Part shown: piece after piece, positions 6,416-52,736 of the stretch
Numbering within the stretch: position 1 is the first letter of the stretch
Layout: every line of letters begins with the position of its first letter
NCBI GenBank assembly: GCA_965218585.1
Contig: CBDCLE010000024.1
Location: forward strand, 321,037 to 385,036
Source: Terriglobia bacterium
GTDB lineage: Bacteria; Acidobacteriota; Terriglobia; 20CM-2-55-15
Direction of reading: 5' to 3'
DNA length: 64,000 nucleotides
Program-made: the position numbers and the translations under genes
The notes under the pieces: model-generated
What the model saw: the letters and a program-made list of their open reading frames with translations, nothing else
Databases searched by the model: none
Told to the model about the DNA's origin: nothing

Positions 6416-6940
6416 TCAGAAAATTCCCAGGGGGCGATAAAAAGTGATCAATCGTCCGCAGGTGATGATCGCCAGCCACAGGACCAGCGAAACTCCACCG
6501 ATTATCCTGGCGATCTTCGGGGTCTGCCCACCGACTTCGACACCTGCGACGTCGCGATAGGTGGTGGTGTAGAAGATGAGCACGTTGATGCCTGTCAGGA
6601 ACATGAAAATCATCTTGAGTTGAAACGCGGCGTTGTACATGTACTGATCCGGCTCACCTGTGAAAAAGAGGCTTCCCGTGATCATGTTCATTCCGTAGCC
6701 GAGAATACCAACGGGCACGAGTCTGTGCAACGTCTCTGGTTTGATGTTCTTAAAGAGTCCCAGCAGTCGCAGATCGAACAATCCAACGGTACCGATCAGA
6801 AGCGAGAGCCCCATAAAGTGGAGTGATTCGAGGATAGGCCACAAGTACGGGCTGCCTGTGACCCACATCGACAACGCACTGTTGTCGAGCCAGAGTCGGA
6901 AGGATGTGACGATTTCAACAGACAGTAGAAAGTCGGTCAT
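6416..6940 (-). CDS. DUF6644-like 4-TM membrane protein
   Basis: Four hydrophobic helices; ESLHFMG, DLRLLG, FQLKM and GRLITF motifs. Confidence 0.75.
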   Translation of the reverse strand: MTDFLLSVEIVTSFRLWLDNSALSMWVTGSPYLWPILESLHFMGLSLLIGTVGLFDLRLLGLFKNIKPETLHRLVPVGILGYGMNMITGSLFFTGEPDQYMYNAAFQLKMIFMFLTGINVLIFYTTTYRDVAGVEVGGQTPKIARIIGGVSLVLWLAIITCGRLITFYRPLGIF

Positions 6941-6950
6941 TGACAGTTCA

Positions 6951-7454
6951 TTAGAAAAAGAAAATGTCTTCGCTTGTCAGGCGGCTATAGGTGTAGGCCA
7001 GCAGACGCCCAGCTGTTGTCGCAGAAGCCCAGAGAAAGAGCGATGTGCCAGCCATAATCTTCACCTTCTTCGGAACAAGGCCATCAGAATCAGGGTTGCG
7101 AATATGCCTTCTCAACTGTCTCAGAAGGAGGAGGGCTGCCGCAATGAGAACGAGTTTCAGGTAGAACACCGGGTTCGTGAAGGCTTTTACCGGATATGCA
7201 ATGAGCAAGGCGATCCCGGACAGGACGTTGACGAAGAGTCCGAACCACATGACGGGGAACACACGATCCAGGGAACGTAGAGGGATCGATTGGGCCAAGC
7301 CGAGGATTCTGACGTTGATGGCGGCATTGGTACCGACCAGAAAGGCCATGCCAAAGGCATGGAGTGTCAGCGGCAGGGGAAACGCCAACATCGAGGATGA
7401 CTCGCGGAGCCAGCTGCCGAAGGCACTCTGTTCGAACCAGATCAGGATATCCAT
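6951..7454 (-). CDS. DUF6644-like 4-TM membrane protein (paralog)
   Basis: LTLHAFG, NVRILG, FYLKL and GRLLAY motifs, collinear with the neighbouring gene. Confidence 0.75.
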   Translation of the reverse strand: MDILIWFEQSAFGSWLRESSSMLAFPLPLTLHAFGMAFLVGTNAAINVRILGLAQSIPLRSLDRVFPVMWFGLFVNVLSGIALLIAYPVKAFTNPVFYLKLVLIAAALLLLRQLRRHIRNPDSDGLVPKKVKIMAGTSLFLWASATTAGRLLAYTYSRLTSEDIFFF

Positions 7455-7538
7455 TTAGTTGCCACTCGTGAGGCCGCGGCAATGGTATCGGAAGCCGGGG
7501 GGGGAGATCAACGCTGTCGGGCGAATATTGCTAGGCCG

Positions 7539-7922
7539 TCAGGGTCGGCTTCGAATCCAAGTCCACCCGTCCGAAGGACGTTCGATGCCTTTCAAATGGA
7601 TCTTGTGCTCCGCGGGGTTTCGACCCGGACTGCCGGTGAGGATTATCCAGTCGCCCGCCTTTAGAGTGTTTTCGTTCACTCCGGCTCTGCCGAGCCGGTT
7701 GACGTTGGCCCATTCTGCCGCAAACATCTGCATCTCACCGTCTTCGTCGGGTGCCATTACGTAAATCCATGCGTGGGGACTTCTCAGGGTGAACTCGAAG
7801 AGCTCACCTTCTACCGAAACTAACCGATCTTCAAAATAGAAACGGGCGAACGAATGGTGTGCGTATGCGGGGATGCCCACAGCGAGAGTGAGAAGAACCA
7901 GGCCCGTCAACAGACGTTTCAT
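7539..7922 (-). CDS. DUF6152-like exported protein (copy A)
   Basis: Signal peptide ending AYA followed by HHSFA; SPHAWIYV; GDWIILTGSP. Confidence 0.8.
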   Translation of the reverse strand: MKRLLTGLVLLTLAVGIPAYAHHSFARFYFEDRLVSVEGELFEFTLRSPHAWIYVMAPDEDGEMQMFAAEWANVNRLGRAGVNENTLKAGDWIILTGSPGRNPAEHKIHLKGIERPSDGWTWIRSRP

Positions 7923-8046
7923 GCGCTTGCTCTCTTCAGCCAGCATGCTCTTAGCTTAATACCGACCGAGGAAAACGGAAAAGCCAAAAACAGATAAATC
8001 CCTGCAGACGACCACTTAGGGAAGCGTCCGTTGCGGGGGAGTCTGC

Positions 8047-8865
8047 CTAATACCACTCGCGGATTCGCACCTCGATGTCGCTCTCGCTGCCGAGAGCGTT
8101 CCGAAACACCTCGGGGTCCTGACCACGGAAGTGATAGGGATAGACGATTGAAGGTCTGAAGGCCTTCGCGCAGTCCGCCGCTTCCTCCGGCGTCATGGTG
8201 AAGGGCAGGTTCATCGGCAGAAAAGCGACGTCGATGTTCTCCAGCGCCTGTATTTCCGGGACACACTCGGTGTCTCCGGATACGAAAATCCGTCGTTCGC
8301 CCATCGTTACAACGTATCCCTGGCCCCGACCCATTGGGTGGTAGAGCCCTCCTTCTTCCGGCCCCCGAGTGAGGTTGTAAGCAGGCACGGCTTCGATTCC
8401 GATGATCGTGTCCGGAAGACGGATCGCGCTGTACTCTCCGTTTAAATACACGGTGGCGGTAGTGATCGTGTTCCAGACCTCACGGGGCGCTATGGTGACC
8501 GCCCCCGGCTTTCTCACCGATTGAGCCGCGTCGGGATTCATGTGGTCGCCATGGATGTCGGTGATCAGGACAATATCCGCTCTGCGGTCCTGCATTTCGG
8601 AAAAATCACCCACAGGATCCACGTAAACTCTTCTCCCGTTCAATTCCAGCATCAGGCTTGCGTGCCCGATCGGGGTGATCGTCACGTCGCCTTCCGTGCT
8701 TTCGATGACGTCGGATACTGTGGGATTGTGCGGTGGCGCGGCTTGGCCACCACGACCGCGCTGGGCGGCGGATAGTTCGCTGCAGGGAATCCAGATGAGC
8801 AGAGCGCCATCCAGCAGGACGAGGCCCAGGCTGAACAATCGATTCTTTCCCAGGACGTCTTTCAT
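8047..8865 (-). CDS. Exported MBL-fold metallo-hydrolase
   Basis: GHASL, TDIHGDH, SGDTE and YPYH motifs; signal peptide. Confidence 0.88.
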   Translation of the reverse strand: MKDVLGKNRLFSLGLVLLDGALLIWIPCSELSAAQRGRGGQAAPPHNPTVSDVIESTEGDVTITPIGHASLMLELNGRRVYVDPVGDFSEMQDRRADIVLITDIHGDHMNPDAAQSVRKPGAVTIAPREVWNTITTATVYLNGEYSAIRLPDTIIGIEAVPAYNLTRGPEEGGLYHPMGRGQGYVVTMGERRIFVSGDTECVPEIQALENIDVAFLPMNLPFTMTPEEAADCAKAFRPSIVYPYHFRGQDPEVFRNALGSESDIEVRIREWY

Positions 8866-9143: not shown

Positions 9144-9512
9144 TCATTCACCAGGAAGGAGCGTCAGCTCTGATCCAGAACACTGATTCCCCAAATACAT
9201 CCCGTGCGCTTCGGGATTCCTCGCTGGACAACCGACAGCGGTTATGGCCCGTCCTTCTTCCCACCCGGCCGCATTCGACATCTCGACACGGTTGCCCCCA
9301 TAAATAGTCCAGACAACCGTTTCTCCATCCGGCTCGGTGACTTCAACCAGCATGTAGGAGTGGGGATTCACCAACCTCAGGTCCACCACTACCCCGGTGA
9401 CTTCCTCGGTGCGATCCAGAAAATAGAACGTCGCCTGCGAGTGGTGCGCCTCGAGGGGAAGGGTGAGGATCAAGAAGATGCCCATCATAAGGACTGAAAT
9501 TCCAACTTTCAT
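9144..9512 (-). CDS. DUF6152-like exported protein (copy B)
   Basis: Signal peptide ending LEA followed by HHSQA; NPHSYMLV; GGAG RBS upstream. Confidence 0.8.
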   Translation of the reverse strand: MKVGISVLMMGIFLILTLPLEAHHSQATFYFLDRTEEVTGVVVDLRLVNPHSYMLVEVTEPDGETVVWTIYGGNRVEMSNAAGWEEGRAITAVGCPARNPEAHGMYLGNQCSGSELTLLPGE

Positions 9513-9553
9513 TTCTCTATTCTCCTTAAGCATGATTCCAAAATTGTCTTCGC

Positions 9554-10360
9554 CTATTCATCGCTGTGTTTCGGCGGAAGCATCGTCAGCGGTGCTGCCG
9601 CAGAGGTGGGATCGCAATCCACAATCCAATTGATCTCCCGGTCGGTCCGCTCGTATTCGAGGGTTTCTGTATAAGGCCGTGTGAGGAAAACAGGATCCTC
9701 AACGGTCAGGACCAATCTTAGACGGTCGGGTCCGACGAGCGAATAACGTTCTGTGACGTGCTTGGCCCAGGAAGAGGGGACCTGCGACTGATAGTCCATT
9801 CCGTTGGGATCAAAGGTAAAGTTACGCGTCTCGATGACGAATTCGTCCTCCTCGTAGCGCCCGATCGAATGGCCGTAGAAGCCGACGTCGCCCGGCGGTG
9901 GGAACCCCCGGCCATCTGTCCAGATCGTCCGGGCGACCGTATAGGCCATGCTTCCTTCGTTTTCCCAGATGACGCGGTCACCTCGCTGAACGAGCCGTAT
10001 GGGGTTCATCCACCCGAAAGTGCTTGGAATGGATTCGGGTATGCAATAGAACTTGCCCTCGACAGGTTCGTCCTGGAATGCCAGCCACGCGCGCGTCCGT
10101 GCGTTGATATGATCGGACCAGTCGAACCTGCAACCGCGACGGGGCAACTGACGTACGTCTTCCTCGATGATGAAGAAGGGCCCGCACGCCGGCGGATTGG
10201 ACCGGCTCACCCGATCCCAGGTCCCGCTGATGTCTGGTATTTCGCCGTTCTGGGCCTCGGACCGGGCCGAAAGGTTCGTCGCGCCCACCAGGACGGCAAG
10301 CGCCATGAAGAAACTCGTGATCACAGTTTTCCGTCGCCTGTCTTTAGATCTGCTTGTCAT
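9554..10360 (-). CDS. Exported DUF6152-partner family protein (copy 1)
   Basis: Signal peptide; PDISGTW, CIPES, RTIWTDGR, YGHSIGRYE, TERY, TVEDP and DCDP motifs. Confidence 0.8.
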   Translation of the reverse strand: MTSRSKDRRRKTVITSFFMALAVLVGATNLSARSEAQNGEIPDISGTWDRVSRSNPPACGPFFIIEEDVRQLPRRGCRFDWSDHINARTRAWLAFQDEPVEGKFYCIPESIPSTFGWMNPIRLVQRGDRVIWENEGSMAYTVARTIWTDGRGFPPPGDVGFYGHSIGRYEEDEFVIETRNFTFDPNGMDYQSQVPSSWAKHVTERYSLVGPDRLRLVLTVEDPVFLTRPYTETLEYERTDREINWIVDCDPTSAAAPLTMLPPKHSDE

Positions 10361-10397
10361 CTTTTAACTACCTCGACACTCCATCGCGAAGTTGCGA

Positions 10398-11465: not shown

Positions 11466-13814
11466 TCAGAAGCGCAGTTTCGTCTGAACGGTGAACTGGC
11501 GGCCCGGACCCAGTGCCGTTCCCGAAAAAACGCCGCTGAAGTTGATCACGTTGAGGTGATCGGTCGCGTTGCGCAGGTCGAACTGAACCGATACCGACCG
11601 GTCCTGCTGCTCCCACAAGAGCAGCCCCAGAGAAACATCGACGCTGAACACCGAGCGGAGCCGCCCCCAATCGAAATCAACCCGGTCGAGGATCGCCTGC
11701 GAGATCTGTTGTGTGTCGGCGTCGGGTTTGCTCCCGTCATCTTCACCCCCATCATCGTCCTCGAGTTCCACGGGCAACCCGCTGCCGTAACGGACTCCAC
11801 TGGAAAACCAGAACCGTCCCTCCGGCTGGACACGGAATAACGCCGACACAGTGTTACGCTGATCCTGACTGATTGAGAAACGTTCCCCGGGGAGTCGTAA
11901 TTCGTCGGCTTCGCCGCCTTCGATAAATAGTCCTCCCGTAACCGGTGAGGTCGCGTGCCCGATCATGTTCGAGTAGCTAGCCGATGAAGACAGCCAACGC
12001 CAGGAGGGCAGATCGAGGCGCACCTCGGTGCCTGTAACACGGGCCGTGTTGAAACTGATAGGGAACGATAAACCCGTGTTCAGAAAGACGTCGTCGTCCA
12101 CATAATTCCGGAATGTCCGCCAGTACTGACTGATGTCCAGGCGCACCGCATCGAAGAATGGTTTGCCGAGGCCGACTTCAAAGAAATGACCGCGTGAGGC
12201 AGGAACGGCGACCGATTCGGAGACTTCGTCCAGTCCCAGCTCTCCTGCCGCACTGCTGAACAGGAGATTCTCAGTCGGCGGAGGTTGAAAGATGCGGTCA
12301 TATGCCGCCCGTAATTGTATGTCCACCGCCGGAATCCAATAGCTGACGGCAACCCGCGGACTGACGGCGTCATCATTGATCAGGAAATCATAGTGGTCAT
12401 AACGGAGTCCGATGTTTGCCGCAAAGTTTCCTAAGCGCACCTGGTCCCGGACGAAAAGGGAAAATTCCTGACTCTGCTTCTCGCCCTGAAAGTCTACATC
12501 GAAGCCCGGATGAGCTTCGGTTTCGCCGAAGCGGAATGCCTCTCGTATATCGCTGATTCGAACATCTCCACCAAATTTCAGCGTATGACGCTCGTCCTCG
12601 AAGGTGAGGTCTGCTATCAGCGTCGACTCCCGGAAACCTCGATCCTGTTCGACGCGTACGGGTGTCGCCTGCGGATTGCTCCAGAGCCGGGCCGAGAGAT
12701 CGCGATGCATGAATCGAACGGTTCCCAGGACATTGGTTGAAACAACTCGCTGGTAGTTCACCCCCAAGGCGGTCTCGCCGGAAAACCTGTCTTGTCGTTG
12801 GCCCGCTTCTTGCTGGGTGAGGTCGTTCGGGACCAGGAACCGGCTTTCACCAGTCCGCACATAGAACGAAATCCGATCCTGGGGAGTCAAATCGTGGTCA
12901 ATCCGAAGATCAAAACCGCCCGTCGTCGCCTTGTTCGTGAAGTTTTCCCTCGACGGAGGGTCCAAGTAACGGTCGGTCGAACCACCCCGACTACCAAGAG
13001 AAATCGACGTGTTGTCGGTCCCAACCTGGTATCGAATGGATCCGGCGCGGTTGTCGAAGCTGCCGAGCTGGGTGTCGATCTCGATTCCGTGGCCGGGCGT
13101 GCCGACTCTACGGGTGTCGAGAGCTATGACACCACCGAGACGTCGACCATATTCGGCCGGGAGACCACTGGTCATGACGTTAACGGCCTCAAATTCGGCC
13201 GTCTCGAAACCAGGAGCGAAGCCGATCGACCGGTTGTCATAGACGGGCATCCCGTCCACGACGTACTGGGTGTCGTATTCCGATCCTCGAGGATGAAGGA
13301 CCGCGTTAGCTTCTACCAGCCAGCCCGGTAGAGTCGTGACGACATCCACCGCGCTGCGGCCGAGGGTTGTCCCTGCAATCCTCTCGAGCTCGGTGCGGCC
13401 GATCTGCATCACTGCCGCGGGCTGAGCGATGTCCAGGAGAGGGGCCGTATCGGTCACCGTAATGGCAGTCGAGGTCCCTGCTACTTCCAGTGAGACAGTA
13501 ATGTTGCGGGGAATGGCCGTCCGGATTTCAATCGTAGTGCCGAACTCTCGAAATCCGATTCGGCCGACCGTGAGGCGATACGTTCCCGGCCGCAGCCGTA
13601 GCATGCGCGCCAGCCCCTCCGGGCCTGTCTCGGCTCTGGCTTCGAATCGGGGATTCCGGCCTGCCAATTCGACATCCGCGAGAGGGAGGGCCAGCCCCTC
13701 GGAGTCGGTGACCAGAACGCGGATTTCTCCTTCCATAACCTGGGCCTGTGCGAGACCTGTTCCGAACAGAACGATAGAGAGCAATCGGATCCAAGTGCCG
13801 AGTTCTTTCATCAC
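11466..13814 (-). CDS. TonB-dependent receptor with N-terminal carboxypeptidase-regulatory-like domain
   Basis: Signal peptide; LRPGTYRLTV; plug HPRGSEYDTQYVVDG and PAEYGRRLGGVI; GLRYD; C-terminal LRF. Confidence 0.88.
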   Translation of the reverse strand: MMKELGTWIRLLSIVLFGTGLAQAQVMEGEIRVLVTDSEGLALPLADVELAGRNPRFEARAETGPEGLARMLRLRPGTYRLTVGRIGFREFGTTIEIRTAIPRNITVSLEVAGTSTAITVTDTAPLLDIAQPAAVMQIGRTELERIAGTTLGRSAVDVVTTLPGWLVEANAVLHPRGSEYDTQYVVDGMPVYDNRSIGFAPGFETAEFEAVNVMTSGLPAEYGRRLGGVIALDTRRVGTPGHGIEIDTQLGSFDNRAGSIRYQVGTDNTSISLGSRGGSTDRYLDPPSRENFTNKATTGGFDLRIDHDLTPQDRISFYVRTGESRFLVPNDLTQQEAGQRQDRFSGETALGVNYQRVVSTNVLGTVRFMHRDLSARLWSNPQATPVRVEQDRGFRESTLIADLTFEDERHTLKFGGDVRISDIREAFRFGETEAHPGFDVDFQGEKQSQEFSLFVRDQVRLGNFAANIGLRYDHYDFLINDDAVSPRVAVSYWIPAVDIQLRAAYDRIFQPPPTENLLFSSAAGELGLDEVSESVAVPASRGHFFEVGLGKPFFDAVRLDISQYWRTFRNYVDDDVFLNTGLSFPISFNTARVTGTEVRLDLPSWRWLSSSASYSNMIGHATSPVTGGLFIEGGEADELRLPGERFSISQDQRNTVSALFRVQPEGRFWFSSGVRYGSGLPVELEDDDGGEDDGSKPDADTQQISQAILDRVDFDWGRLRSVFSVDVSLGLLLWEQQDRSVSVQFDLRNATDHLNVINFSGVFSGTALGPGRQFTVQTKLRF

Positions 13815-20438: not shown

Positions 20439-20812
20439 GTGACGCTGGGAGATCTGAACAAACATAAATACGTGGCGCTGGAGACGTATAAGAAGAGCGG
20501 TCAAGGCGTGAGCACGGCGATGTGGGTCACGGCCAAAGCCGACGCTTTGTACATGCTGACGGACGCGAACAGCTGGAAGGCGAAACGAATCCGGAACAAC
20601 GACCGGGTTCGCCTGGCCCAGAGTGACTCGAAGGGAAAACTGTGAAGGGTGAGTGGGTGGACGCCAAGGCCCGGCTTCTTGATGATCCTGAGATACTGGC
20701 GGCACAGAAGCGGCGAGCCGTGGCAAAATACGGCGTGATGGTCCGATTGATGTCTCTTATTGTGCGACTGACCGAACCCGGGCGAGTCGATGTCGTGATT
20801 GAGATTCAGTGA
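20439..20812 (+). pseudogene. PPOX-class F420-dependent oxidoreductase-like gene, frameshifted near 20638
   Basis: LETYKKSGQGVSTAMW and SWKAKRIRNNDRVRLA; continues in another frame as VKGEWVDAKARLL...KYG...VVIEIQ* after the GGGAAAAC run. Confidence 0.7.
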
Positions 20813-20868
20813 ATAGGTGGAAACAGATGAATGTGATGACAAGGCTGAAAGATGTTTACGGAGCGAAG

Positions 20869-22721
20869 ATGTGGAAAGTCTCCTTTGAATCCGCCACGAG
20901 CTTGGTCCTCGTGTCGATTCTCAGTGTAAGCATATCTCCGGTGGCTCTTGCCCAGGGCTTGAACGCTGGACCAGGGTCGAGCGAGGAGCAGCGGGCACGC
21001 ATGGAGTTGCCGGAGGTTGAATCTCGGGCCCGGGATTTCGCGACTGCCGAAGAACACTACGACTACCTGCTGGAGGAAGCTGACGGCGGCACCCGGCACA
21101 CGATGGCCACCATACCGGTCTGGGACGGACTCTGGGGTTCGGGGAACAACACGATGCCCGGCCTGTTCTTAGAAGATGGATCGCTGGCGATTGCCATGAG
21201 CCCAGGCGGAACTGTGAAAGAAGACGTCTTGACTCCTGCCTATGAGCAGCAGTTTCGGGAACGTCGAGCGGAACTGGAACAGTACGGCGAACAGCTCTAC
21301 GACCACCTGACCAACTGTGAGTACCCCGGTGCAGCGCGCTGGCTCTGGGAGCCGTATATCAAGGAGTTCGTCAACACGCCGAAACAGACTTGGATGCTAA
21401 ACGACATGATGAACGAGACCCGCCGCGTCTATATCGGTGCCGAACACGTCAACATCGAAGGAGCACACTCGGCGACCGGCGACAGTATCGGTTTCTGGGA
21501 TGATGACAAGCTGGTCCTGTGGACCAAATGGATTCAACCGGTCGACTACCTGCGCGGCCTACCGTTGACCAGCAATCAACTCGAGATGGTAGAAAGCTGG
21601 CAACAGATCACGGGAGAGGACGGGGCCAGAATGTTGGTCACCCAGGTGACGTTTTACGATCCCATCGGACTGGTCAGGCCACAGTCGGCCGTTTACAGTC
21701 ACAATTCCCGCCCGGACCTTGAGGAATTCGGTGTCCGGATCCGAAACTGGGAATGCCCGACCAGCACCAACTCTTACCTAAGGCGTGTTAACACTAATGA
21801 GCATGAATGTTTTATAATCAGGCATGGAGATCACACAGGAGCAGTATTGTCGCATCGAGCCGGAACTGCCGCGTCAGCGGGGCAACGTCAGTCTTTCGAA
21901 CCTGACGGTCTTGAACGCCATTTTGTATGTGGCTGAGCAGGGCTGCAAGTGGCGCGGTCTGCCCAAGCGCTTTGGCAACTGGCACACCATCTACACCCGG
22001 ATGAACCGCTGGTCCAAGAACGGGGTGCTCGACGCCGTCTTCGAAAAAACTCCAGCGCGAGCAACTGGTGCGCATCCGGGTGGAAGCCGTTTCGATGGAC
22101 TCGACCATTGTGAAGGTGCATCCCGACGGCACGGGAGCGTTAAAAAAAACGGTCCGCAAGCGATCGGCAAATCCCGCGGTGGATGGACCACCAAGATTCA
22201 TCTGGTTGCCGCGAATGCTCGAACGGCGATAACGTTTGCGCTCTCGCCCGGCCAAGCGCACGACGCCCCGCAGGGCCGCGATCTGCTCGCCGGCCTGGGG
22301 CCGTTGCCCGCGCCGCTGCCGCTGCTGATGGACCGTGCCTACCAGGACGACCAGACCCGCCAATTGGCTCTGGATTTTGGGTGGATTCCCGTCGTGCCGC
22401 CCAAGCGCAACCGCCTGGAGCCGTGGGAATACGACCGCGTGCTCTACCGCCGCAGGAACGAAGTCGAGAGGCTCTTCCGCCGACTCAAGGGTTTTCGGCG
22501 TATCTTCTCCCGTTTCGATAAACTCGACGTCATGTTTCCTCGCCTTCCTTCACTTCGCACTCATCGTCGAGGCACTACGTTAGTGTTAACACGTCCTAGC
22601 TGAGGACGGGACAACGCAGTTTTACCTGCCGGGAGATCTCGAATACAAGGATCCGCGCGGGTTTACGGATTTTCCGGATATCCCGGGTCAGTCGCTCAAT
22701 CCTATTTTCGATGCGCAATGA
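20869..22721 (+). pseudogene. Exported DUF6152-partner family protein (copy 3, divergent) interrupted by IS5
   Basis: NCEYPG, TRRVYI, GDSIGFWDDDKLV, FYDP and WECP motifs. Removing 21781-22598 restores ...NSYLAEDGTTQFYLPG...PIFDAQ*. Confidence 0.8.
21781..22596 (+). mobile_element. IS5 family (IS427-like) insertion sequence
   Basis: TIRs AGGCGTGTTAACACTA / TAGTGTTAACACGTCC; TA target duplication; transposase 21824-22583 with GCKWRGLP, SRGGWTTKIH, DRAY and RNEVERLFRRLK; slippery A-run at ~22142 plus extra indels. Confidence 0.92.
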
Positions 22722-22761: not shown

Positions 22762-23226
22762 ATGAAAAACCTAATGCTTGCCGCATTCGTGATCGCCACC
22801 TTGTGCGTGGCTGGTACGGCCACGGGCCACCATTCGTTCGCGATGTTTGATACAGCCCAGGAAATGTTGATTGAGGGACGTGTTGTGGACTGGCACTACA
22901 ACAACCCGCATAGTTGGCTGTATGTCGAAGCTCCCGATGAAAACGGTGAAATGCAGACCTGGAGTATTGAGGGGGCGGCACGGGTGCATGCTGCCCGTCA
23001 GGGCGTGACCGGTAACACGTTTCGAAAAGGTGAATTTGTCAGGGTGGTGATGAACCCTCTTCGGGACGGGCGACGCGCCGGTGCGGTGTGCATCGTCGTC
23101 AAAGAGGACGGAACCATTGCACAGCCGAATGACGGGACATGTATCGCAAACGACGTTATCGACCGGTGGGAGTCAAACGGGTGGTTTGAGACGACCGGTC
23201 ATCTCGACGTTCATCCTGCCGACTGA
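22762..23226 (+). CDS. DUF6152-like exported protein (copy C)
   Basis: Signal peptide ending ATG followed by HHSFAMFD; NPHSWLYV; PLRDG. Confidence 0.85.
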   Translation: MKNLMLAAFVIATLCVAGTATGHHSFAMFDTAQEMLIEGRVVDWHYNNPHSWLYVEAPDENGEMQTWSIEGAARVHAARQGVTGNTFRKGEFVRVVMNPLRDGRRAGAVCIVVKEDGTIAQPNDGTCIANDVIDRWESNGWFETTGHLDVHPAD

Positions 23227-23839: not shown

Positions 23840-24679
23840 ATGGATCATGCCAGTAGTTTCAGAACAGTAGCCAAGAGGGCTCGGGGCGCGATGATCTCTT
23901 TTTTCGTGGCAGCCGCCGTGCTGGTAGGCCCCATGGACATTGCAGCTCAGAATCCCACGATCTCTCCGGTCGGGTCGGATTTTCTTGGGACCTGGCGCAA
24001 GACGAGCCCGGGCGGAAACTGCGGTTCCCTCCTAGACCCTTTCGGCGGCCCTCGTGAGTTTTGTCAGTTTCCGGTCGATCAACTCGAACCGCTTTTGAAC
24101 GGAAGGGCCCGGGCATGGATCGAGTTTTCCGACGAAACCTTGTCGCCGAGATGGGCCTGCGTCGCGGCGGGAATCCAAACCGTGTTGACCGATGCCGGGG
24201 GCTACCTTTGGACCATATCCACGAGGCCTGATGCGGTCGTGCAGTCCTTCGAGCAGTCCAACTGGGTGCGTTACATCTGGATGGACGGCCGGGGCCATCC
24301 GCCTGCTACCGACATCTTTTATCACGGACATTCGATCGGCCGCATGGACGGCAACGTGTTGGTCGTCGAAACTACGAATTTTACGTTTGATCCGGATGGC
24401 TGGGACGACCAGTCCCACATCGCCACTTCGCATCTGAAGAAGTTGACCGAGCGCTACATACCCACCGGCACGGACACTGTGGAGATTGAATTCACCGTCG
24501 AGGATCCTGTTTTTCTGAAGGCGCCTTTTACGTGGAGCCATACGTATGGAAAGACCGATCAACAGTTCATCGGTTCCTGGGACTGCGATCCCGAGGTTGG
24601 CTTGCGGGAACTGTATCAGTCGATTCCGAGCAGGTACGAGGACGACACGACGCCAGCGAGGTATATAAACAGCTTCTAG
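23840..24679 (+). CDS. Exported DUF6152-partner family protein (copy 4)
   Basis: DFLGTW, WACV, RYIWMDGRGHP, YHGHSIGRMDG, ETTNFTFDP, TERY, TVEDP and DCDP motifs. Confidence 0.82.
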   Translation: MDHASSFRTVAKRARGAMISFFVAAAVLVGPMDIAAQNPTISPVGSDFLGTWRKTSPGGNCGSLLDPFGGPREFCQFPVDQLEPLLNGRARAWIEFSDETLSPRWACVAAGIQTVLTDAGGYLWTISTRPDAVVQSFEQSNWVRYIWMDGRGHPPATDIFYHGHSIGRMDGNVLVVETTNFTFDPDGWDDQSHIATSHLKKLTERYIPTGTDTVEIEFTVEDPVFLKAPFTWSHTYGKTDQQFIGSWDCDPEVGLRELYQSIPSRYEDDTTPARYINSF

Positions 24680-38433: not shown

Positions 38434-38475
38434 GACGTTTTCGGGTTCTAGCTAGGGTCGTTTTTGCGCGTTGCG

Positions 38476-45700: not shown

Positions 45701-47290
45701 ATGTCTAATTTCAGAGTCTTGCTGATGGATGGAATTGATCGGGCAGGCGTCGATCTGCTTGGGAAAACCGAGGTCATCGAGCCGGTTGTCGAAGCAAAGC
45801 TTCCCAGGGACAAGCTGCTCGGAGTCGTTTCAGAGATAGATGGCATCGTCGTTCGCAGTGCCACCCAGGTGGATCGCGAATTGATCGAGGCGGCACCGGG
45901 ACTGAAAGTCATTGGTCGAGCCGGCGTCGGCGTAGACAACGTCGACATCGATGCGGCGACCGAGCGAGGCGTTATCGTGATGAACTCTCCGGGCGGTTCC
46001 TCTACCACGACGGCGGAACACACCGTGGCGATGATGTTCGCGCTGTCCCGCAATATTCCGCAGGCGTACGACCTTCTCAAGGAAGGCACGTGGGAGAAGA
46101 GTCGCTTCAAAGGCGTCGAACTCAGCGGGAAGACGCTGGGAGTCGTGGGGCTGGGTCGCATCGGCAGCGAGGTGGCGCGCATGGCCCAGGGAATCGGAAT
46201 GAACGTGATCGCGTACGATCCGTTCATTCGGCCCGATGCGGGTCAGACCGGCGGGCTTCACCTGGTTGCTCTGGAGGAAATCTTCGCCGAAGCCGAGTTC
46301 ATAAGCGTCCACACACCACTGACCGAGGAAACTCGAAACCTGATCAACACCAGTGTGATTGCCGGGATGAAGGACGGTGTGCGTCTCATCAACTGCGCGC
46401 GTGGAGGGATCGTCAACGAAGCGGATCTTGCCGACGCTCTGCGATCAGGTAAGGTTGCCGGAGCGGCATTCGATGTCTTCGAAACCGAGCCCAACACAGA
46501 TTCGCCACTGTTCGGTCTGGATAATTTTATTGCGACGCCGCACCTGGGTGCCTCGACGTTTGAAGCACAACGCAAGGTGAGCGAAGACATCTGCCGACAG
46601 ATTGCAGACTATCTGATCAAGAACACGATTCGGGGAGCATTGAATTTTCCGCAGCTCGACGCGGGACAGCTTGACCGCTACAAGCATTTCGTGGACCTCG
46701 TCACGCGACTTGCGACGTTCATCAGCCAGATAGCCGAAGGACCCATGGAAAACGTTGCGGTTCGGTATTCGGGAGAGGTATGCGACATGAACCTCGAGTA
46801 TCTGACCTCGACCGTCATGCGGAAGCTGCTCGCTCCGATCCTGGGTGAAGAGATCAACCTGATCAACGCCACGCGAATCGCCGAGCAGCGAGGTGTCAAA
46901 CTGGAAGAGACGCGTGTCCCAGTCCCGGAAAACTTCACTAGCCTGGTTGAAATCGAGGTCCGCACCGAAGACGAATCGCGCCGCGTGTCCGGTACGGTTT
47001 TCACAGACAAGCTGCCACGGATCGTGTCGGTAGACGGGTACGAACTGGAAGTGGTTCCCAGGGGCCACATGATTTTCTTGACGAACGACGACAAGCCCGG
47101 TGTCATTGGTGATATCGGGACGGTACTCGGAAAATGCAAGGTCAACATTGCGGGTATGCATCTGGGCAGGGAAATCGAGGGTGGAACAGCTCTGGCTCTC
47201 TTGTTGATCGACAATGCAGTGGACGAAGGAATTGTCGATCAGGTTCGCAAGATCAAGAACGTTCTGACCGCGAAAGCGATTCGAATCTGA
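45701..47290 (+). CDS. serA: D-3-phosphoglycerate dehydrogenase (with ASB/ACT domains)
   Basis: GRAGVGVDNVD, GLGRIG, INCARGG, TPHLGAST and DKPGVIG motifs. Confidence 0.95.
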   Translation: MSNFRVLLMDGIDRAGVDLLGKTEVIEPVVEAKLPRDKLLGVVSEIDGIVVRSATQVDRELIEAAPGLKVIGRAGVGVDNVDIDAATERGVIVMNSPGGSSTTTAEHTVAMMFALSRNIPQAYDLLKEGTWEKSRFKGVELSGKTLGVVGLGRIGSEVARMAQGIGMNVIAYDPFIRPDAGQTGGLHLVALEEIFAEAEFISVHTPLTEETRNLINTSVIAGMKDGVRLINCARGGIVNEADLADALRSGKVAGAAFDVFETEPNTDSPLFGLDNFIATPHLGASTFEAQRKVSEDICRQIADYLIKNTIRGALNFPQLDAGQLDRYKHFVDLVTRLATFISQIAEGPMENVAVRYSGEVCDMNLEYLTSTVMRKLLAPILGEEINLINATRIAEQRGVKLEETRVPVPENFTSLVEIEVRTEDESRRVSGTVFTDKLPRIVSVDGYELEVVPRGHMIFLTNDDKPGVIGDIGTVLGKCKVNIAGMHLGREIEGGTALALLLIDNAVDEGIVDQVRKIKNVLTAKAIRI

Positions 47291-47310
47291 CCTGTTCAAG
47301 CGATTTCGCC

Positions 47311-50238
47311 ATGCCCGGCACTCTAGCATCGCTGGCGCGGCACACAGCGATCTTTGTTCTCTCCTTTCTCACTACATCCATCAGCCTGGCTGCGCAGGAT
47401 CCGGTGGCTCGGTTTACGGGAACTGTTACCGACGAATTCGGAACACCTGTTGAGGCGGCCGAGGTCCGCGTCCTGCTTGATGGGGGCCGTTTACTGGATG
47501 CCGTTACGGGGACTGACGGGAATTTTGCTTTCGAGATCGACGAGCCGTTTCAGCTCGAGGTGACCCGGTCCGGTTTTCGTTCGGTGCGGACGACAGTCCT
47601 CTCGCTAACCGGCGGCGAGACCTATCAGATCGGTTTCGTTCTGCTATCTGGAGATCCGTCTGATGTTGAGGTTGTCGAACTTCAGTTGAGCGAACCGATT
47701 CAATTCAGCGATGCGTCAACTCCGCTCGCACGCGACGACCTTCCGCGTTCGGACCGGCTTTTTGGTCTTCGTGGAGGACTGAACGTATCCGGTATCGCCG
47801 AAGGGTCCAGTCAGCAGTGGATCGCTGCTTCAGGCAGTGTGTTTGCGAGTTCTCCAAGCGCCATGGTCCTGATCGAGCCATTTGACCTGTCGGCGGAATT
47901 TACCTCCAACATGGGTGTGGATGATTCGCTTCCGGCAGGTGGTCCGCGTTTGAACGGCAATGCATATTATTTCCACCTGAATGATGCGCTGAACGCCCGA
48001 AATTTCTTTGATCTTCCCGACGAGCCGATTCCGCCTTTCAAATACCACTTCTTCGGGTCTGAGCTGGGAGGTCCCATTGGGGAGCGAACGTACGTTTTCG
48101 GCAGGTACTGGGGTTTGCGTATCCGGCAGTCTGTAACACGTGCGGCTACGGTTCCACCACCCGCATGGGTCGGAGGCGATTTTTCTTCTCTGTCCGATCC
48201 CATTCTGGATCCCGAAACCGGCTTTCCTTTCCCGGGGAACAGGATTCCTGTCGAGCGATTGCACGCCGACGGCGTTCAGTTGGCCGGCCTGTTTCCCGGG
48301 CCGAATGTTGGGGGAACAGACATACAGAATTTCAGGACTGTCGGAACGCTCAAGACCGTTGCAGATGCGTTCGGGATTCGCGTGGACCATCGGATGACCG
48401 TGTCCGACGAAACCTCATTCGAGTACCAATACAGCCGTGACACGACCCAAGACCCGTTCAACTTCGTGACGGGGATCACAAATCTTCCCGGATTCGGTGT
48501 TCGGGACTCCCTGGAGACGCAAACGCTGAGAATCGGAAACGCCCATGTGTTTTCACCGACCCTCTTCCACCAGTTTGGGTTCTCACTCGGATACCTGGAG
48601 CAACCGCGGCAGATTCTGACGTCTTCGGAATATCCGGCAGTCATTATTACGGGGTTTTCAAACGTGGGGCACGCGACCAACCTGCCCCAGGAGCGGCGCA
48701 ACAGGACGATAGAGTTCACGAACGATTTCTCCTGGATTCACGGAGGCGCGACCACTCAGATCGGAGGTAGTGTTCGGCATTTCAGCTTCGATGCCTTCAT
48801 GGATCTGTTCAGCAGGGGTCAGTTTCAATTCAATGCGGATTCGTATTCGCAGAACTCTTTCGCCAACCTTCTGCTGGGTCTCCCAGCGAACGCCATACGC
48901 ATCGAGGGAGATACAGCGCGCGAGTTCGATAGCCGGACCACCGGAGCCTACGTGCAGCATCAGTGGAGTCTCGGCTCCGGTCTCGACGTCAATGTCGGGC
49001 TCCGTTACGACTATCAGTCGCCTTTCGCCGAGGCCGGGGACCGGGTGGCGAACTTCACGACTCGGGGGACGCTTGACGTTTCACCCGACCGGCTTTACGG
49101 AGTCGACACCAACAACTGGGGCCCGCGTGTTGGTGTGGCCTGGAGTCCGCTGGCCGACACCGTCGTTCGTGCAGGCTACGGGATCTTCTACGACAACCTG
49201 GCCGTCGGTGACAGCTTGTTTTTGTTGGGATTGAACCCCCCGTTCGTCAGCTTCAAAGTTGAGAACAACGATCCGGTTTTGCCTCGCTTCGACCTCGGAA
49301 CGGTGTTTGAAGACCCATCCAACTCCATTCCACCGAGCGTGTTTTCAGCTTCAACCTCTCTAAGAAACCCTTACGTCCAACACTGGAATTTGATCATTGG
49401 GCGGACTCTGTTTTCCGATTACGACCTCACCTTGTCGTACATAGGACAAAAGGGGACGCACCTTCGACGCCAGCTGAACCTGAACCAGCCAGCGCCTGGA
49501 CCCGCAGTCGCTTTGGAAGAACGACGGCCTTTCCCCGGCTTTGCGAACGTGTTCCAGTTTGAAACAAGCGCGTCATCGATTGCCCACGCGGGAGATGTGA
49601 ATGTCGTGCGACGCTTTGCCAGGGGGATGGGCTTTGGCGCGAGCTACCGGTTTGCGCGGATGATCGATGACGCGACATTGATCAGTATTCTTCCGCAGAA
49701 CAGTCGCGACCTGAAATCAGAAAGAGGTCTTGCTGATTTTCACGTCAAGCACAGCTTTTCGCTGACTGGAGCCCTCGACCTGCCGTATCTGGATGGGTGG
49801 CAACTCCAGGGGGTTGGTCTGTTCCAGTCCGGAACACCTCTGTCAGCAATACTCAGTTCCGATGTGGCCGGCACAGGGAGCCCGATCGTGAATCGTCCCA
49901 ATCTGGTAGGGGACCCCCGTGTAGACAATCCGACGCCGGCACGGTTCTTCAATACCGATGCCTTCGAAGTCCCCGAGCCGGGACAGTTCGGGGACAGTGG
50001 CCGGAACGTTATCATTGGCCCCGGCCTGGCCAATGTGGATTTTGCGCTGAGGCGGACATTTCGTCTGTCCGATGAGTTTCAGGCAGAGTTCCGTGCGGAT
50101 TTCTACAACGCTTTCAACCACCCGAACTTTATCGCGCCACCTACGACGCAGAACTTTACCGATTCTCCAGAGTTCGGAGCGTTGTTCGTCGCCCGCTCTC
50201 CCAGGACGATACAACTGGGGATGACGCTATTCTGGTAG
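47311..50238 (+). CDS. TonB-dependent receptor (Oar-like, Acidobacteria type)
   Basis: Signal peptide after ATG 47311; LNARNFF, GLRYDY, NNWGPRVGVAW, RAGYGIFY, GRNVIIGPG, NAFNHPNF and RTIQLG motifs. Confidence 0.88.
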   Translation: MPGTLASLARHTAIFVLSFLTTSISLAAQDPVARFTGTVTDEFGTPVEAAEVRVLLDGGRLLDAVTGTDGNFAFEIDEPFQLEVTRSGFRSVRTTVLSLTGGETYQIGFVLLSGDPSDVEVVELQLSEPIQFSDASTPLARDDLPRSDRLFGLRGGLNVSGIAEGSSQQWIAASGSVFASSPSAMVLIEPFDLSAEFTSNMGVDDSLPAGGPRLNGNAYYFHLNDALNARNFFDLPDEPIPPFKYHFFGSELGGPIGERTYVFGRYWGLRIRQSVTRAATVPPPAWVGGDFSSLSDPILDPETGFPFPGNRIPVERLHADGVQLAGLFPGPNVGGTDIQNFRTVGTLKTVADAFGIRVDHRMTVSDETSFEYQYSRDTTQDPFNFVTGITNLPGFGVRDSLETQTLRIGNAHVFSPTLFHQFGFSLGYLEQPRQILTSSEYPAVIITGFSNVGHATNLPQERRNRTIEFTNDFSWIHGGATTQIGGSVRHFSFDAFMDLFSRGQFQFNADSYSQNSFANLLLGLPANAIRIEGDTAREFDSRTTGAYVQHQWSLGSGLDVNVGLRYDYQSPFAEAGDRVANFTTRGTLDVSPDRLYGVDTNNWGPRVGVAWSPLADTVVRAGYGIFYDNLAVGDSLFLLGLNPPFVSFKVENNDPVLPRFDLGTVFEDPSNSIPPSVFSASTSLRNPYVQHWNLIIGRTLFSDYDLTLSYIGQKGTHLRRQLNLNQPAPGPAVALEERRPFPGFANVFQFETSASSIAHAGDVNVVRRFARGMGFGASYRFARMIDDATLISILPQNSRDLKSERGLADFHVKHSFSLTGALDLPYLDGWQLQGVGLFQSGTPLSAILSSDVAGTGSPIVNRPNLVGDPRVDNPTPARFFNTDAFEVPEPGQFGDSGRNVIIGPGLANVDFALRRTFRLSDEFQAEFRADFYNAFNHPNFIAPPTTQNFTDSPEFGALFVARSPRTIQLGMTLFW

Positions 50239-50253
50239 TCGTGGGCACACGTT

Positions 50254-51315
50254 ATGGCTAAAATGGCGTCTAACTTCTTTATCATGCGTCGAAGAAACAA
50301 ACCGATAGTCCGGATCTCGTGTTCCCTGCTCCTTCTTACGATTCTTTTCCTCGATTCGACATCCGCTCGAAGCCACACAGGAGGTCGAACGTCCGGAAGT
50401 GCACGCAGAATTCGGTTTCGGAGTTTTCCCCTGGTCCGCCGAGGGCATGGAAAGCCTCTCATCCGAAGAGGTCCGAATGCTCCTTTCGGGATTTCACAGG
50501 GGATGGTCCGTTGACAAGTTCATTGAAGAGACCGAAAGGCCGCGTGTGCGCATTCTTACCCTGATGGACGATCTGGAGAGTGCCCTCCTGGTTCGAGGCC
50601 GGAACGACTTCAACATGAGACCCGGTCTTCCCGTGTTGCGCGAAGAGGACGTTCGAAAGGCCGATCCGTTGCTGGAACGGAACACCCGGGAGTTTGTCCA
50701 GATCATCAACGACCATTGGGACGAGGTCGAGGCGTTTCGGTCGTCGCTGGAAGCCGATCAGGAGTTTCCAGAACCCGAGAACTTGTATCGCATCTTAGTG
50801 GGCGGCGTCCTGCTGGGAGGGATGATCGATGCCCTTTATGACGAGGGTACTCTGATGCCTGGTCCTCCCCGTCGGGCCAGAAGGGGGGAGGGATACTATG
50901 CGTGGATGGTCGAAGGCGCCGAGGGACACAACTATCTCGTACACCAGACGGCTCGAGTCGGACGTCACGAGGTGTTCTCGGTAGGTCCCGTCGCTGAGGA
51001 AAATCTTCGGATTCAGCTGGACGACCTGGCCGCGGAAGGCCCGGTATACGAAACCGAAGACGCCAGGCGCTGGCGGATTTTTACCAGTGTATTTTCCAGA
51101 GATTACCTCATTCCCTACCTGAAGACTCAACGGAACGATATCTTCGACATCCATTCCGACATCGAAGCGTCCGAACTACAGCGCAATTGGGGAGTTCGTG
51201 GCCTGGTACTACCAGTCACTTGTAGAGCGGACCGCAGACTCTCTGGTGGCGTCCGGAAGGATGGCCGCTCCTCGGAACTTTTTTCAAATACGCTCTCCGG
51301 GAATCCCGCCGCTAG
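50254..51315 (+). pseudogene. Exported hypothetical protein, split by apparent frameshifts
   Basis: The signal peptide in ORF 50254 joins the 50399 frame near 50370; the C-terminus resumes as GEFVAWYYQSLVERTADSLV...KYALRESRR*. Confidence 0.5.
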
Positions 51316-51495
51316 CGGTACAGGTCACTCGTTAGACAGATCACACGGACAAAGAGACGGATTGCACGTGGTTCTTCACGCGGATTGTGCGAATTGATCA
51401 CGCAGTGCTCTGGAGTTTCTTGACTAGTGACAGCCGTGGACACTAGCATGGGTCGGTTGACCGAATCCTGCCGTTGAAAGGGAGTATCAGCAGCC

Positions 51496-51902
51496 ATGAG
51501 ACTTCTGTTGTGTTCTCTGGATAGGTTTCATCTCTGCAGCGACGCCCCTCTGGGCCCATCACTCGTTTGTAGCTGTGTTCGATCGAGCCCAGCCCGTCAG
51601 CGTGACCGGAACGATCACGAAGGTGGAGTGGACGAACCCGCATATCTGGTTTTATGTCGATGTTGACGGTGGAAATGGAGAGGTGACGACGTGGGGCTTT
51701 TCGGCCGCACCTCCAGGTGTCCTCATGAGACGAGGCATCACCAGAGGATGTCCTCGAGCTTGGATCCGTGATCAACGTCGAGGGTTTTCGAGCCCGGGAC
51801 GGTTCCAATAACGCCTCTGGCGGGCGTGTGACGTTCCCCGACGGCCGGAACGTGTTCACGGCTTCAAGAGAAGATGCTGCTCCCGAAACCGAACGCAGGT
51901 AA
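51496..51902 (+). pseudogene. DUF6152-like exported protein (copy E), two apparent frameshifts
   Basis: Reconstructed as ...TPLWA-HHSFVAVFDRAQPV...EWTNPHIWFYV...RRGITR/DVLELGSVINVEGFRARDG...ERR*. Confidence 0.75.
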
Positions 51903-51941
51903 ACCTTGACAGCCTTCATAGCGAGGATAGCGAGGTCCCCC

Positions 51942-52736
51942 ATGAGAAATCGTTTACTGTACTCCGTCATTGCCTTGTCGACTTTAGCTCTCGTAGTGTC
52001 CGGGATGACGTTACTTCGTCCAAGCCCAGTCCGGGAGCGAATCGGGCGATCAGGGTTTCCCCGAACCTCGCTCGGGAAGCCCCGACTTTTCGGGGTTCTG
52101 GTCTCAGCCCCGACATCCGGATGCTCGCGGAGGCGGAGCTACCGTCTTTACAGAGGAAGAAATGCCTCCGTTTCAACCGGGCGGAGAAGCGCTTTTTTTC
52201 GAGCCCCGAACAGGCGATCCCTACCATGACGAACCACGCGCGTTCTGCCTGCCGTCCGGTTTTCCATCTGCATTCTTTGGTCCCTATCCGGTCCAGATAG
52301 TCCAGGCGGAAAAATGGATGGTCATGGTGACCGAGTTCCAGCGCACGGCCAGGCTCATCCCATTGGACGGCCGCCCTCATCTTGAAGGGATAGAGCCGAC
52401 GTATTACGGCGATTCGGTGGCCCATTGGGAGGGGGACGTTCTCGTTATCGACACCACGAACTTCAAGAGATGGTCTCTCGACGACTACTACTACGTGAAC
52501 CCAGAAGAGTATCGGATGCACAGCGACGCGTTTCACACCATCGAGCGACTGCGATTCCTCGATTCAGGCACTCTCTCCTACGAGTTCACCGTCGATGATC
52601 CCTAAGATTTTTACTGCACCGTGGACTGAACAGCTTGAGATGGAACTTCACCCGGAGTGGGAGCAAGTCGGCCTCTACGAATTCGTTTGCGAGGAAAACA
52701 ATCGCTGTCCGGGGTGGAGACTGCAGCGCTCAGTAG
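51942..52736 (+). pseudogene. Exported DUF6152-partner family protein (copy 6), several apparent frameshifts
   Basis: PDFSGFW, FCLPSG, RLIPLDGRPH, YYGDSVAHWEGDVLVIDT, IERL, TVDDP/KIFTAPWT and YEFVCEENN, spread over different frames. Confidence 0.75.

Follow-up and report, generated by a model that had tools for sequence, protein, structure and literature searches.

A widely duplicated two-gene module linking DUF6152 proteins with a predicted His-His N-terminus to a family of predicted calycin-like barrels

The subject of this analysis is a repeated gene module in a 64,000-nucleotide stretch of DNA, referred to here as the window, from an organism deposited as Terriglobia bacterium (GenBank assembly GCA_965218585.1, contig CBDCLE010000024.1, positions 321,037 to 385,036 of the forward strand). 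The module consists of S, a small exported protein that Pfam classifies as DUF6152 (PF19649), and L, a larger partner family for which neither Pfam nor NCBIfam has a model; individual copies are named by letter and first coordinate in the window (e.g. S9144, L9554). S and L make up a real, conserved two-gene module whose members are duplicated together, and they are frequently fused into a single open reading frame (ORF). The mature S protein is predicted to begin with two consecutive histidines on an oligonucleotide/oligosaccharide-binding (OB) fold, and L is predicted to form a calycin-like barrel. On this basis, S may be a metal head, probably for copper, carried on L as a lipophile-binding barrel, the two forming one widely diversified periplasmic unit, although this proposal is tentative and we place it somewhat below an even chance.

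The copies in the genome were counted from contig ORFs with iterated profiles of both families, which gave 75 S ORFs and 117 L ORFs, including 13 ORFs containing both. A separate profile search of the genome returned 73 DUF6152 matches, 70 of them over the cut-off, and 109 L matches. Together, the S and L ORFs occupy 131 kb (2.9% of the genome) and represent 172 of 4337 crudely called genes. An L gene lies within 300 bp of 44 of the 62 unfused S genes and is co-oriented with its neighbor in 39 of these 44 cases, with a near-even gene order (L downstream in 20 pairs and upstream in 19). Because L covers less than 3% of the genome and yet neighbors such a large share of the unfused S genes, this adjacency is far beyond chance.

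The same arrangement is found in other genomes. Among 80 foreign loci chosen by DUF6152 alone, L is present within 4 kb in 69 and within 300 bp in 68; judging by record titles, these loci come from at least five phyla, and include Gamma- and Alphaproteobacteria, Acidobacteriota, Verrucomicrobiia and a metagenome-assembled genome (MAG) of Baltobacteraceae. In the reverse test, with 80 foreign loci chosen by L, S was detected in 45, of which 44 have it within 400 bp, 42 in the same orientation and 13 in the same open frame. In five genomes with just one to three S copies, S adjoins L in every case, as L-L-S, L-L-L-S or S-L, and the window arrangement L10398-L9554-S9144 reproduces the L-L-S layout of these low-copy genomes. 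The original prediction, which had described the pair as an obligate two-subunit system, expanded and diversified, and had proposed gene-neighborhood statistics as a check, is thus borne out in its account of expansion and conserved adjacency, in foreign loci and low-copy genomes alike, and in its description of S as obligately paired (44/62 in this genome, 68/80 foreign loci, 5/5 low-copy genomes). It does not hold for L, which has S as a neighbor or fusion partner far less consistently (49/104 in this genome, 44/80 foreign loci).

The settings of L are correspondingly mixed. The immediate neighbor is S for 36 of the 104 L genes in the genome, a metallo-beta-lactamase (MBL) fold gene for 26 and another L for 13; a further 13 are fused to S, and 16 fall into none of these groups. 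Several proteins of 450-530 aa, including P0277 and P0330, contain two or three tandem L domains and have no Pfam match, and it may be usual for an S to have several L partners. The L family is large: clustering at 50% identity leaves 10,157 representatives that match at an E value of 0.001 or less, and 4,093 at 1E-10.

Ten of the eleven other genomes of the same bacterial family with a match contain 45-142 copies, and the eleventh contains three. Elsewhere the module is patchy, with 25 of 121 genomes positive in a class-level sample; its hosts include Gammaproteobacteria from soil, freshwater and the sea, as well as Alphaproteobacteria, Acidobacteriota and others. L-family genes were also seen at two loci (L173 and L206) labelled as an Acidimicrobiia MAG and a Bifidobacterium MAG, labels that may be wrong; these are single-membrane taxa, to which a periplasmic reading would not apply.

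The fusions provide a second line of evidence for a physical association, and their domain order is constant. S precedes L in all 13 fusions of this genome, in all eight of the global matches of 329-367 aa picked from an exhaustive L search, and in 23 of the 24 DUF6152 proteins longer than 302 aa. In one fusion, residues 1-117 align to S and are followed by the whole of mature L. As the separate genes are found in both orders but S is always N-terminal in the fusions, this constancy is what would be expected if S needed its N-terminus free. The 24th long protein, P0392 (332 aa), has DUF6152 at residues 16-102 and a complete lipocalin domain of the YceI type at 156-318 (3.6E-39), and by its sequence S can pair with a second barrel family that is unrelated to L in sequence. 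A tree of 65 S domains, 11 of them fused, needs four changes between the fused and separate states, at least two of which are forced by well-supported branches; fusion or fission must therefore have occurred more than once.

S and L also diverge together. When 31 adjacent pairs were compared, the distances among their S members correlated with those among their L members (r = 0.56), a value that none of 2000 permutations reaches, and in 13 of the 31 pairs the partner of the nearest S paralogue is the nearest L paralogue, against a chance expectation of about one. The correlated distances indicate that the pairs duplicate and diverge as units, the result that a congruence check suggested with the original prediction had looked for. 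The predicted complex of mature S9144 with mature L9554 scored a median of 0.53 in runs of 0.65, 0.53 and 0.40 (best of three controls, 0.00), with at least 71% of contacts in common between runs and a partner pLDDT (predicted local distance difference test score) of at least 80. In the benchmark for this score, 58 of 80 solved complexes and 2 of 110 mismatched pairs attained the mark, but just 7 of the 80 solved complexes, and both of the passing mismatches, did so with 0.60 or below. The complex prediction, another of the suggested checks, adds modest support for a binding that the fusions already make likely. Given that the module is conserved, co-duplicating and often fused, it is very likely that S and L form a physical two-subunit unit.

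The most conserved feature of S is its predicted mature N-terminus. In 102 of 103 foreign S ORFs, two histidines stand directly at the predicted signal-peptide cleavage site, which is of the AxA type (alanine at -1 in 93 and at -3 in 85 of the 102). A serine occupies the third position, after the two histidines, in 101 of the 102, and all 102 have the histidine of an [N/S]-P-H motif at +27 or +28 from the first histidine. In this genome, using a simple pattern, HH[STAG] is present in 67 of the 75 S ORFs and both motifs in 59. Across 28 divergent S sequences, invariance is limited, apart from the start methionine, to H30, H31, P57 and H58. Both families have export signals, as the original prediction of a periplasmic or exported system had supposed: S is an exported protein as judged by its signal peptides and L by an N-terminal hydrophobic stretch, which is found in 88 of 95 unfused L sequences as compared with 29% of control ORFs.

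According to a review, a histidine brace by definition needs an N-terminal amino group freed by signal-peptide cleavage, and its known classes comprise LPMOs, pMMO/pAMO (site B), X325/Bim1, CopC, PmoF1 and YcnI (PMC10952591). The predicted mature end of S has a free N-terminal histidine of this kind, and S fits the sequence logic of a copper histidine brace, although on a different fold. The AlphaFold2 model of S22762 (pLDDT 86) has five strands, at residues 33-47, 50-58, 64-70, 92-100 and 106-114. All 50 of its best structural matches are OB-folds, as is the Foldseek top list, with a top Z score of 7.6. Among the 50 matches listed there is no CusF, TIMP, protease-inhibitor OB or known histidine-brace fold, although such a family may stand among those not listed. 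Searches of solved structures by sequence, using both single sequences and profiles, returned nothing credible for either S or L.

L matches no sequence family in Pfam or NCBIfam. The AlphaFold2 model of L23840 (pLDDT 85) is a ten-strand calycin-type barrel with a helical N-terminal part, and resembles most closely, among solved structures, a bile-acid-binding protein at Z 9.3, then the Oplophorus luciferase domain nanoKAZ at 9.2, SAHS of a tardigrade at 8.9 and UnaG at 8.7, followed by nitrobindins (7.7 and 7.4). The calycin match to this predicted barrel spans about 110-130 residues at Z 9.3-7.7, and the best Foldseek E value is 4.9E-5; such matches give the fold class of the model and not its family. 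In the ESM Atlas, the 30 clusters nearest to an L homologue are all unnamed, and the nearest named cluster, DUF3471 (0.78), is a lead only. In a set of 355 L domains, G163 is present throughout (100%), and D222, R144, C107, E204, W52 and C249 are nearly universal.

A third component, a pair of four-transmembrane (4-TM) proteins of the DUF6644 family, accompanies some modules. The genome has seven DUF6644-like ORFs in five locations, none of them more than 1 kb from an S or L. Among 21 related genomes, DUF6644 was found in 12 of the 13 with DUF6152 and in none of the eight without it; in these relatives it nearly always occurs as tandem pairs, and an L-S-TM-TM operon recurs. Five residues (His41, Arg58, Lys109, Trp155 and Arg163) are invariant across 30 members including both window proteins, and the single invariant histidine lies in a transmembrane stretch. 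The inner-membrane component suggested in the original prediction is not general: with seven ORFs at five places, DUF6644 in 7 of the 80 foreign L-chosen loci and about 70 S/L clusters without it, the membrane pair belongs to a minority of modules.

The proposal that we favor may be set out as follows. A single periplasmic unit would be built from S and L, produced either from adjoining genes, to give a heterodimer, or as one chain in which S precedes L. Signal peptidase would cut at the AxA site of S, a protein of about 100 residues with an OB-fold, and leave a free His-His-Ser N-terminus, of which His1 and His2, together with the invariant histidine 27-28 residues further on, could form a metal site resembling a histidine brace, most likely for copper. 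L would be a disulfide-stabilised calycin barrel, similar to fatty-acid-binding proteins, lipocalins or YceI, with a small lipophilic molecule as its ligand. The metal head would then act on the ligand held by the barrel, or be loaded through it, with redox chemistry on the ligand being the preferred variant. In the approximately 100 paralogous pairs, a constant metal site would be combined with varied barrels for differing ligands, and in a subset of operons (L-S-DUF6644-DUF6644) the 4-TM pair would pass metal or electrons from the inner membrane. A conserved site together with 25-35% identity among about 100 paralogues makes a radiation of enzymes or binding proteins likelier than a chaperone, and the lack of a conserved metal ligand in L means that catalysis, if there is any, rests on S alone.

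Several observations weigh against this proposal. The confidence of the S model is low at the N-terminus (block pLDDT 55-64), where the site of His1, His2 and His28 is a putative one, and the fold matches of both S and L (Z 7-9) fall within a range that is common for unassigned models. S has no Pfam match to CopC (PF04234) at E up to 0.01, and the described histidine-brace classes named in the review have, to our knowledge, folds other than OB (beta-sandwich). No conserved histidine, methionine or free cysteine is present over the 355 L domains, over half of the L genes in this genome are without an S neighbor, and the varied neighboring genes point to no substrate. The tool used for complex prediction grades the S9144-L9554 score as weak support. 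As for the membrane pair, four DUF6644 proteins have full-length matches to CopD (PF05425) at 1.5E-5 to 9.5E-5, which at 23-26 bits are below the cut-off of 32.1, and an hhalign comparison of the DUF6644 alignment with one real CopC-CopD protein, a comparison of low power since the template is a single sequence, gave a probability of 0.3%. Finally, a hundred copies would be odd for a metal chaperone.

A more specific form of the proposal is that S-L is a class of periplasmic copper oxygenases or peroxygenases, with an OB-fold histidine brace set over a barrel that presents a lipophile, and DUF6644 proteins as dedicated feeders of electrons or copper. The module would then do for small molecules what the LPMOs do for their substrates, and the barrel would have radiated, in Acidobacteriota, Steroidobacteraceae/Rariloculaceae-like Gammaproteobacteria and others, into about 100 substrate-specific pairs in each genome. 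This version is rather doubtful.

The predicted calycin fold of L, and the lack of catalytic-looking residues among those that L conserves, would also suit a carrier without catalytic activity. S-L might transport or scavenge lipophiles such as quinones, polyisoprenoids, oxidised lipids or xenobiotics, in the manner of BcnA/LcoA, with the histidine end of S docking, gating or touching the ligand and the DUF6644 proteins acting as haem electron carriers. BcnA and LcoA are described as genetically linked, and as fused in alphaproteobacteria, and YceI lipocalins as holding ubiquinone-8 or polyisoprenoids (PMC9113575); the natural DUF6152-YceI fusion is in keeping with that parallel, as is the one invariant transmembrane histidine per DUF6644 protein, given that these proteins are encoded in pairs. 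Yet an unmasked His-His with a third histidine at a fixed spacing exceeds what docking would need, DUF6644 has no match to cytochrome b561, and most modules are without the membrane pair. We consider such a carrier unlikely, if still worth weighing beside the proposed metal head on a barrel.

The faint resemblance of DUF6644 to CopD raises the further idea of metal trafficking, in which S would be a chaperone for copper (or nickel) like CopC or YcnI, the DUF6644 pair a CopD-like importer and L an accessory or client. The N-terminal histidine site of S agrees with this idea, as do the S-TM-TM operon of the window (6416-7946) and the L-S-TM-TM operons of relatives. Beyond the sub-threshold CopD matches described above, four of the six weak CopD matches in the relatives' genomes fall inside DUF6644 ORFs, and no canonical CopD was found in this genome (no matches). 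Copper transport is the main context of the histidine-brace derivatives CopC, PmoF1 and YcnI (PMC10952591). The window DUF6644 proteins do not match CopD at E up to 10; one DUF6644 protein gives a match to DUF2214. Against the idea, the 45-142 copies found in same-family genomes are far above the number of any known metal chaperone, roughly 70 S/L clusters are without DUF6644, and the constant partner is a lipid-type barrel without metal ligands. A trafficking role for the module is improbable, and the lipophile-linked metal site remains the explanation that we prefer.

The genes around the module are varied. Among 142 genes flanking foreign loci, the most frequent families were MFS (7), Lactamase_B (5), Abhydrolase_3 (4), COesterase (3), PepSY_TM (3) and DUF6644 (3), and a fixed third partner of S-L was rejected on the strength of this variety. 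The original prediction had also coupled the system to outer-membrane uptake, with S-L as an accessory that takes substrates from a TonB-dependent receptor. Three barrel genes of the window do adjoin S/L genes, and 8 of the 18 barrel-like ORFs of at least 400 aa in the genome lie within 5 kb of S or L. Of the window barrels, the gene at 47134-50238 has strong receptor-type matches (OMP_b-brl_4 at 594 bits and TonB_dep_Rec_b-barrel at 43.8 bits, with no plug family listed), and in the other two, 11466-13814 and 18152-20305, such matches are partial or weak. A receptor-like gene is found within 5 kb in just 6 of 77 S/L clusters of the genome, and there are no receptor families among the 25 most frequent Pfam families of the 142 foreign flanking genes. 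Receptor coupling was accordingly rejected as a general feature, and a role for S-L as a receptor accessory appears very improbable.

The commonest neighbor of S and L is a family of exported MBL-fold proteins (Lactamase_B), with 39 paralogues in the genome, 25 of them within two genes of S or L. The best match of this family to a solved structure has an E value of 7.7E-7. The MBL-fold gene of the window (8047-8865) was not assigned to this family, although it has the same fold. The family tracks L rather than S, and L-MBL-L-L-MBL-S-L arrays are found, for example, at G000:C9:15978-39246 and C3:4745-13269, which suggests that L may serve MBL-fold enzymes as well as S. These neighbors also bear on the idea that S inhibits or regulates periplasmic metalloenzymes. 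In TIMPs and serralysin inhibitors, a free N-terminus chelates the catalytic metal of the target enzyme, and the predicted free N-terminal histidine on an OB-fold could act similarly, with the MBL-fold paralogues as targets. Nevertheless, the MBL genes adjoin L rather than S, S is fused to L and never to an enzyme among the fusions examined, and the 50 listed fold matches of S contain no TIMP or protease-inhibitor OB, with the reservation on unlisted families given above. Of all the explanations considered, an inhibitor is the one to which we attach the least credence.

The module genes of the window (Table 1) were identified from ORF calls and their translations, together with a six-frame scan of the 64 kb with family profiles built from the genome. 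The scan found five S and six L domains and no further copies, in agreement with the five small and six larger paralogs of the original prediction, although some copies proved to be truncated or frameshifted. Of the S genes, three are intact, one is truncated and one is frameshifted. The five intact L proteins have no match in Pfam or NCBIfam, and NCBIfam has no family for any of the ten window proteins queried. The family names DUF6152 and DUF6644 given in the original prediction are correct according to Pfam, with one DUF6644 protein under the cut-off, and a full-text literature search found no paper on either family, in line with the statement that no function was known to be assigned.

Table 1. 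Module genes of the window and their neighbors. Domain coordinates are from the six-frame scan with family profiles.
Feature	Position	Strand	Domain by profile	Basis and remarks
DUF6644 4-TM protein, second of tandem pair	6416..6940	-		Pfam PF20349, 30.0 bits (cut-off 27)
DUF6644-like 4-TM protein, first of tandem pair	6951..7454	-		PF20349, 24.7 bits, under cut-off 27; recovered by jackhmmer in own genome
S7539, intact; DUF6644 pair downstream, no adjoining L	7539..7946	-	7563-7922	PF19649, 68.2 bits (cut-off 27); PAYA/HHSF at predicted cleavage site, then SPH
Exported metallo-beta-lactamase-fold protein between two S genes	8047..8865	-		Lactamase_B_3 2.8E-19, Lactamase_B_2 3.1E-15
S9144, intact; last gene of L-L-S operon	9144..9533	-	9192-9512	PF19649, 47.4 bits (cut-off 27); 20 bp after L9554
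L9554, intact	9554..10360	-	9581-10354	No Pfam/NCBIfam family; family profile 2.7E-64
L10398, intact, 72% identity to L9554	10398..11222	-	10404-11210	Family profile
Outer-membrane barrel-like protein upstream of L-L-S operon	11466..13814	-		CarboxypepD_reg 1.1E-8; partial OMP_b-brl_4 3.4E-8
Second barrel-like protein, divergent from L20809	18152..20305	-		CarboxypepD_reg 3.1E-5 only; jackhmmer relative of 11466-13814
L20809 (20869 in the original prediction), long N-terminal insert, 3' end overlaps insertion sequence (IS)	20809..21936	+	20821-21795	Profile positions 5-259 of 275
IS5-family transposase gene between L20809 and S22762	21824..22603	+		DUF4096 1.1E-21, DDE_Tnp_1 9.6E-13
S22762, intact, C-terminal extension	22762..23226	+	22762-23115	PF19649, 96.0 bits (cut-off 27); AlphaFold2 pLDDT 86, predicted OB-fold
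L23840, intact	23840..24679	+	23861-24652	AlphaFold2 pLDDT 85, predicted calycin-like barrel; 202 homologues, all unnamed
S24692, truncated after 56 codons	24692..24859	+	24710-24826	Profile positions 6-44 only
IS256/Mutator-type transposase gene beside S24692	25188-26480	-		Pfam
L28386, intact, divergent, no S beside	28386..29351	+	28416-29306	Profile 3E-78; flanked by transposase gene 26724-28043
TonB-dependent-receptor-like outer-membrane barrel upstream of last pair	47134..50238	+		OMP_b-brl_4 7.1E-178, TonB_dep_Rec_b-barrel 4.1E-11, CarboxypepD_reg 1.1E-10
S51496, frameshifted in assembly	51496..51848	+	51509-51848	Profile pieces 51509-51751 and 51744-51848 in different frames; start codon in third frame
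L51942, frameshifted in assembly	51942..52736	+	52036-52602	Profile positions 56-220; N- and C-terminal parts in other frames

Four adjacent, co-oriented pairs in either order had been reported, and all four are present. In L10398-L9554-S9144 the gaps are 37 and 20 bp; L20809 and S22762 are 825 bp apart, with the IS5-like transposase gene in between; L23840 and S24692 are separated by 12 bp; and S51496-L51942 forms the fourth pair. The DUF6644 pair follows S7539, the copy that it had been said to follow, with gaps of 84 and 10 bp, and the barrel genes noted upstream of two clusters are also in place. One of these barrel genes (11466-13814) lies 243 bp from L10398, and the other (47134-50238) is separated from S51496 by one ORF without a Pfam family (50399-51397, 332 aa).

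The frameshifts in the last pair may represent either recent decay or assembly errors in the form of small insertions, in which case the pair may be intact in relatives. Among contigs of three runs compared with 51400-52800, those of a relative that is 90-95% alike (depth 2-5, in runs of two studies) are without one base at each of 51482, 52014, 52071, 52603 and 52708, and without two at 52050; the single-base gaps at 51482, 52603 and 52708 coincide with frame breaks in S51496 and L51942. Transposase genes of three families (IS5-like at 21824-22603, Mutator/IS256-like at 25188-26480 and DDE_5 at 26724-28043) cut or split module genes of the window. The genome as a whole is rich in insertion sequences, and has transposase-represented BLAST clusters with 122, 37, 28 and 25 members.

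Between the L28386 gene and the last pair, a run of hydrolase genes (29729-41633) includes four of the Amidohydro_1/3 type (29729, 34375, 38476 and 40308), an M20 peptidase (31329), a polysaccharide deacetylase (32911) and an arginase-family gene (37138). An ORF at 36146-36820 (224 aa) has no Pfam family. Amidohydrolase genes also recur beside S/L clusters elsewhere in the genome.

Adjacency, fusion and co-divergence thus link two anonymous families into one testable system, in which an unmasked His-His N-terminus has been identified as the invariant feature. A full-text search of the literature for N-terminal histidine, OB-fold and copper together gave nothing relevant. If S does bind copper, it would be the first OB-fold histidine brace, and the module would possibly be a rich source of enzymes that oxidise lipophilic or recalcitrant organic compounds. 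If S-L is instead a carrier, it would extend the BcnA/LcoA theme of a lipocalin with a membrane partner. Under either reading, the low-copy genomes are simple genetic entry points.

Several kinds of known system come closest. One consists of the lipocalin-like domains of penicillin-binding-protein-type peptidases (DAP, Pab87, Lip3 and Ulm16; DUF3471), in which a small barrel of the fold class predicted for L is attached to a periplasmic or secreted hydrolase; barrels of this type are among the fold matches of L (1ei5 at Z 6.5, 2qmi at 6.0, 9sn1 at 5.3 and 8fek at 5.0), and L often adjoins an MBL-fold hydrolase. However, these matches are weak, L is a separate, larger protein with a helical N-terminal part and two conserved cysteines, and the neighboring enzymes have another fold.

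The Burkholderia protein BcnA, a YceI-family lipocalin, and the linked and sometimes fused cytochrome b561 LcoA detoxify lipid peroxyl radicals (PMC9113575). They share with the present module a periplasmic lipocalin-type barrel, predicted in the case of L, a linked small membrane protein bearing histidine, and natural fusions, and one DUF6152 protein is itself fused to YceI. However, L is not YceI and DUF6644 is not cytochrome b561 by sequence, and neither an S-like soluble partner nor a massive expansion is described for BcnA/LcoA.

Histidine-brace proteins resemble S in being exported and in having an N-terminal histidine freed by signal-peptide cleavage, as is predicted for S, in which a further conserved histidine could serve as second ligand. 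CopC and YcnI are reported to work with a CopD-type membrane protein, CopD and YcnJ, respectively (PMC10952591, PMC8424229, PMC12362106), and in a subset of cases S similarly adjoins a multi-pass membrane pair that has a conserved histidine and is faintly CopD-like. S differs in its predicted OB-fold with two consecutive N-terminal histidines, its calycin partner and its approximately 100 copies, and in that its copper site is a predicted one. S and DUF6644 also fall below the cut-offs of the CopC and CopD models, the DUF6644 proteins are encoded by two separate 4-TM genes, and most S proteins are without a membrane partner. The parts of the module therefore resemble known kinds, namely the histidine brace and the lipocalin with a membrane partner, but their combination matches none of these; what distinguishes it is a His-His OB-fold protein with a calycin partner, frequent fusion of the two, and 45-142 copies per genome in one gammaproteobacterial family.

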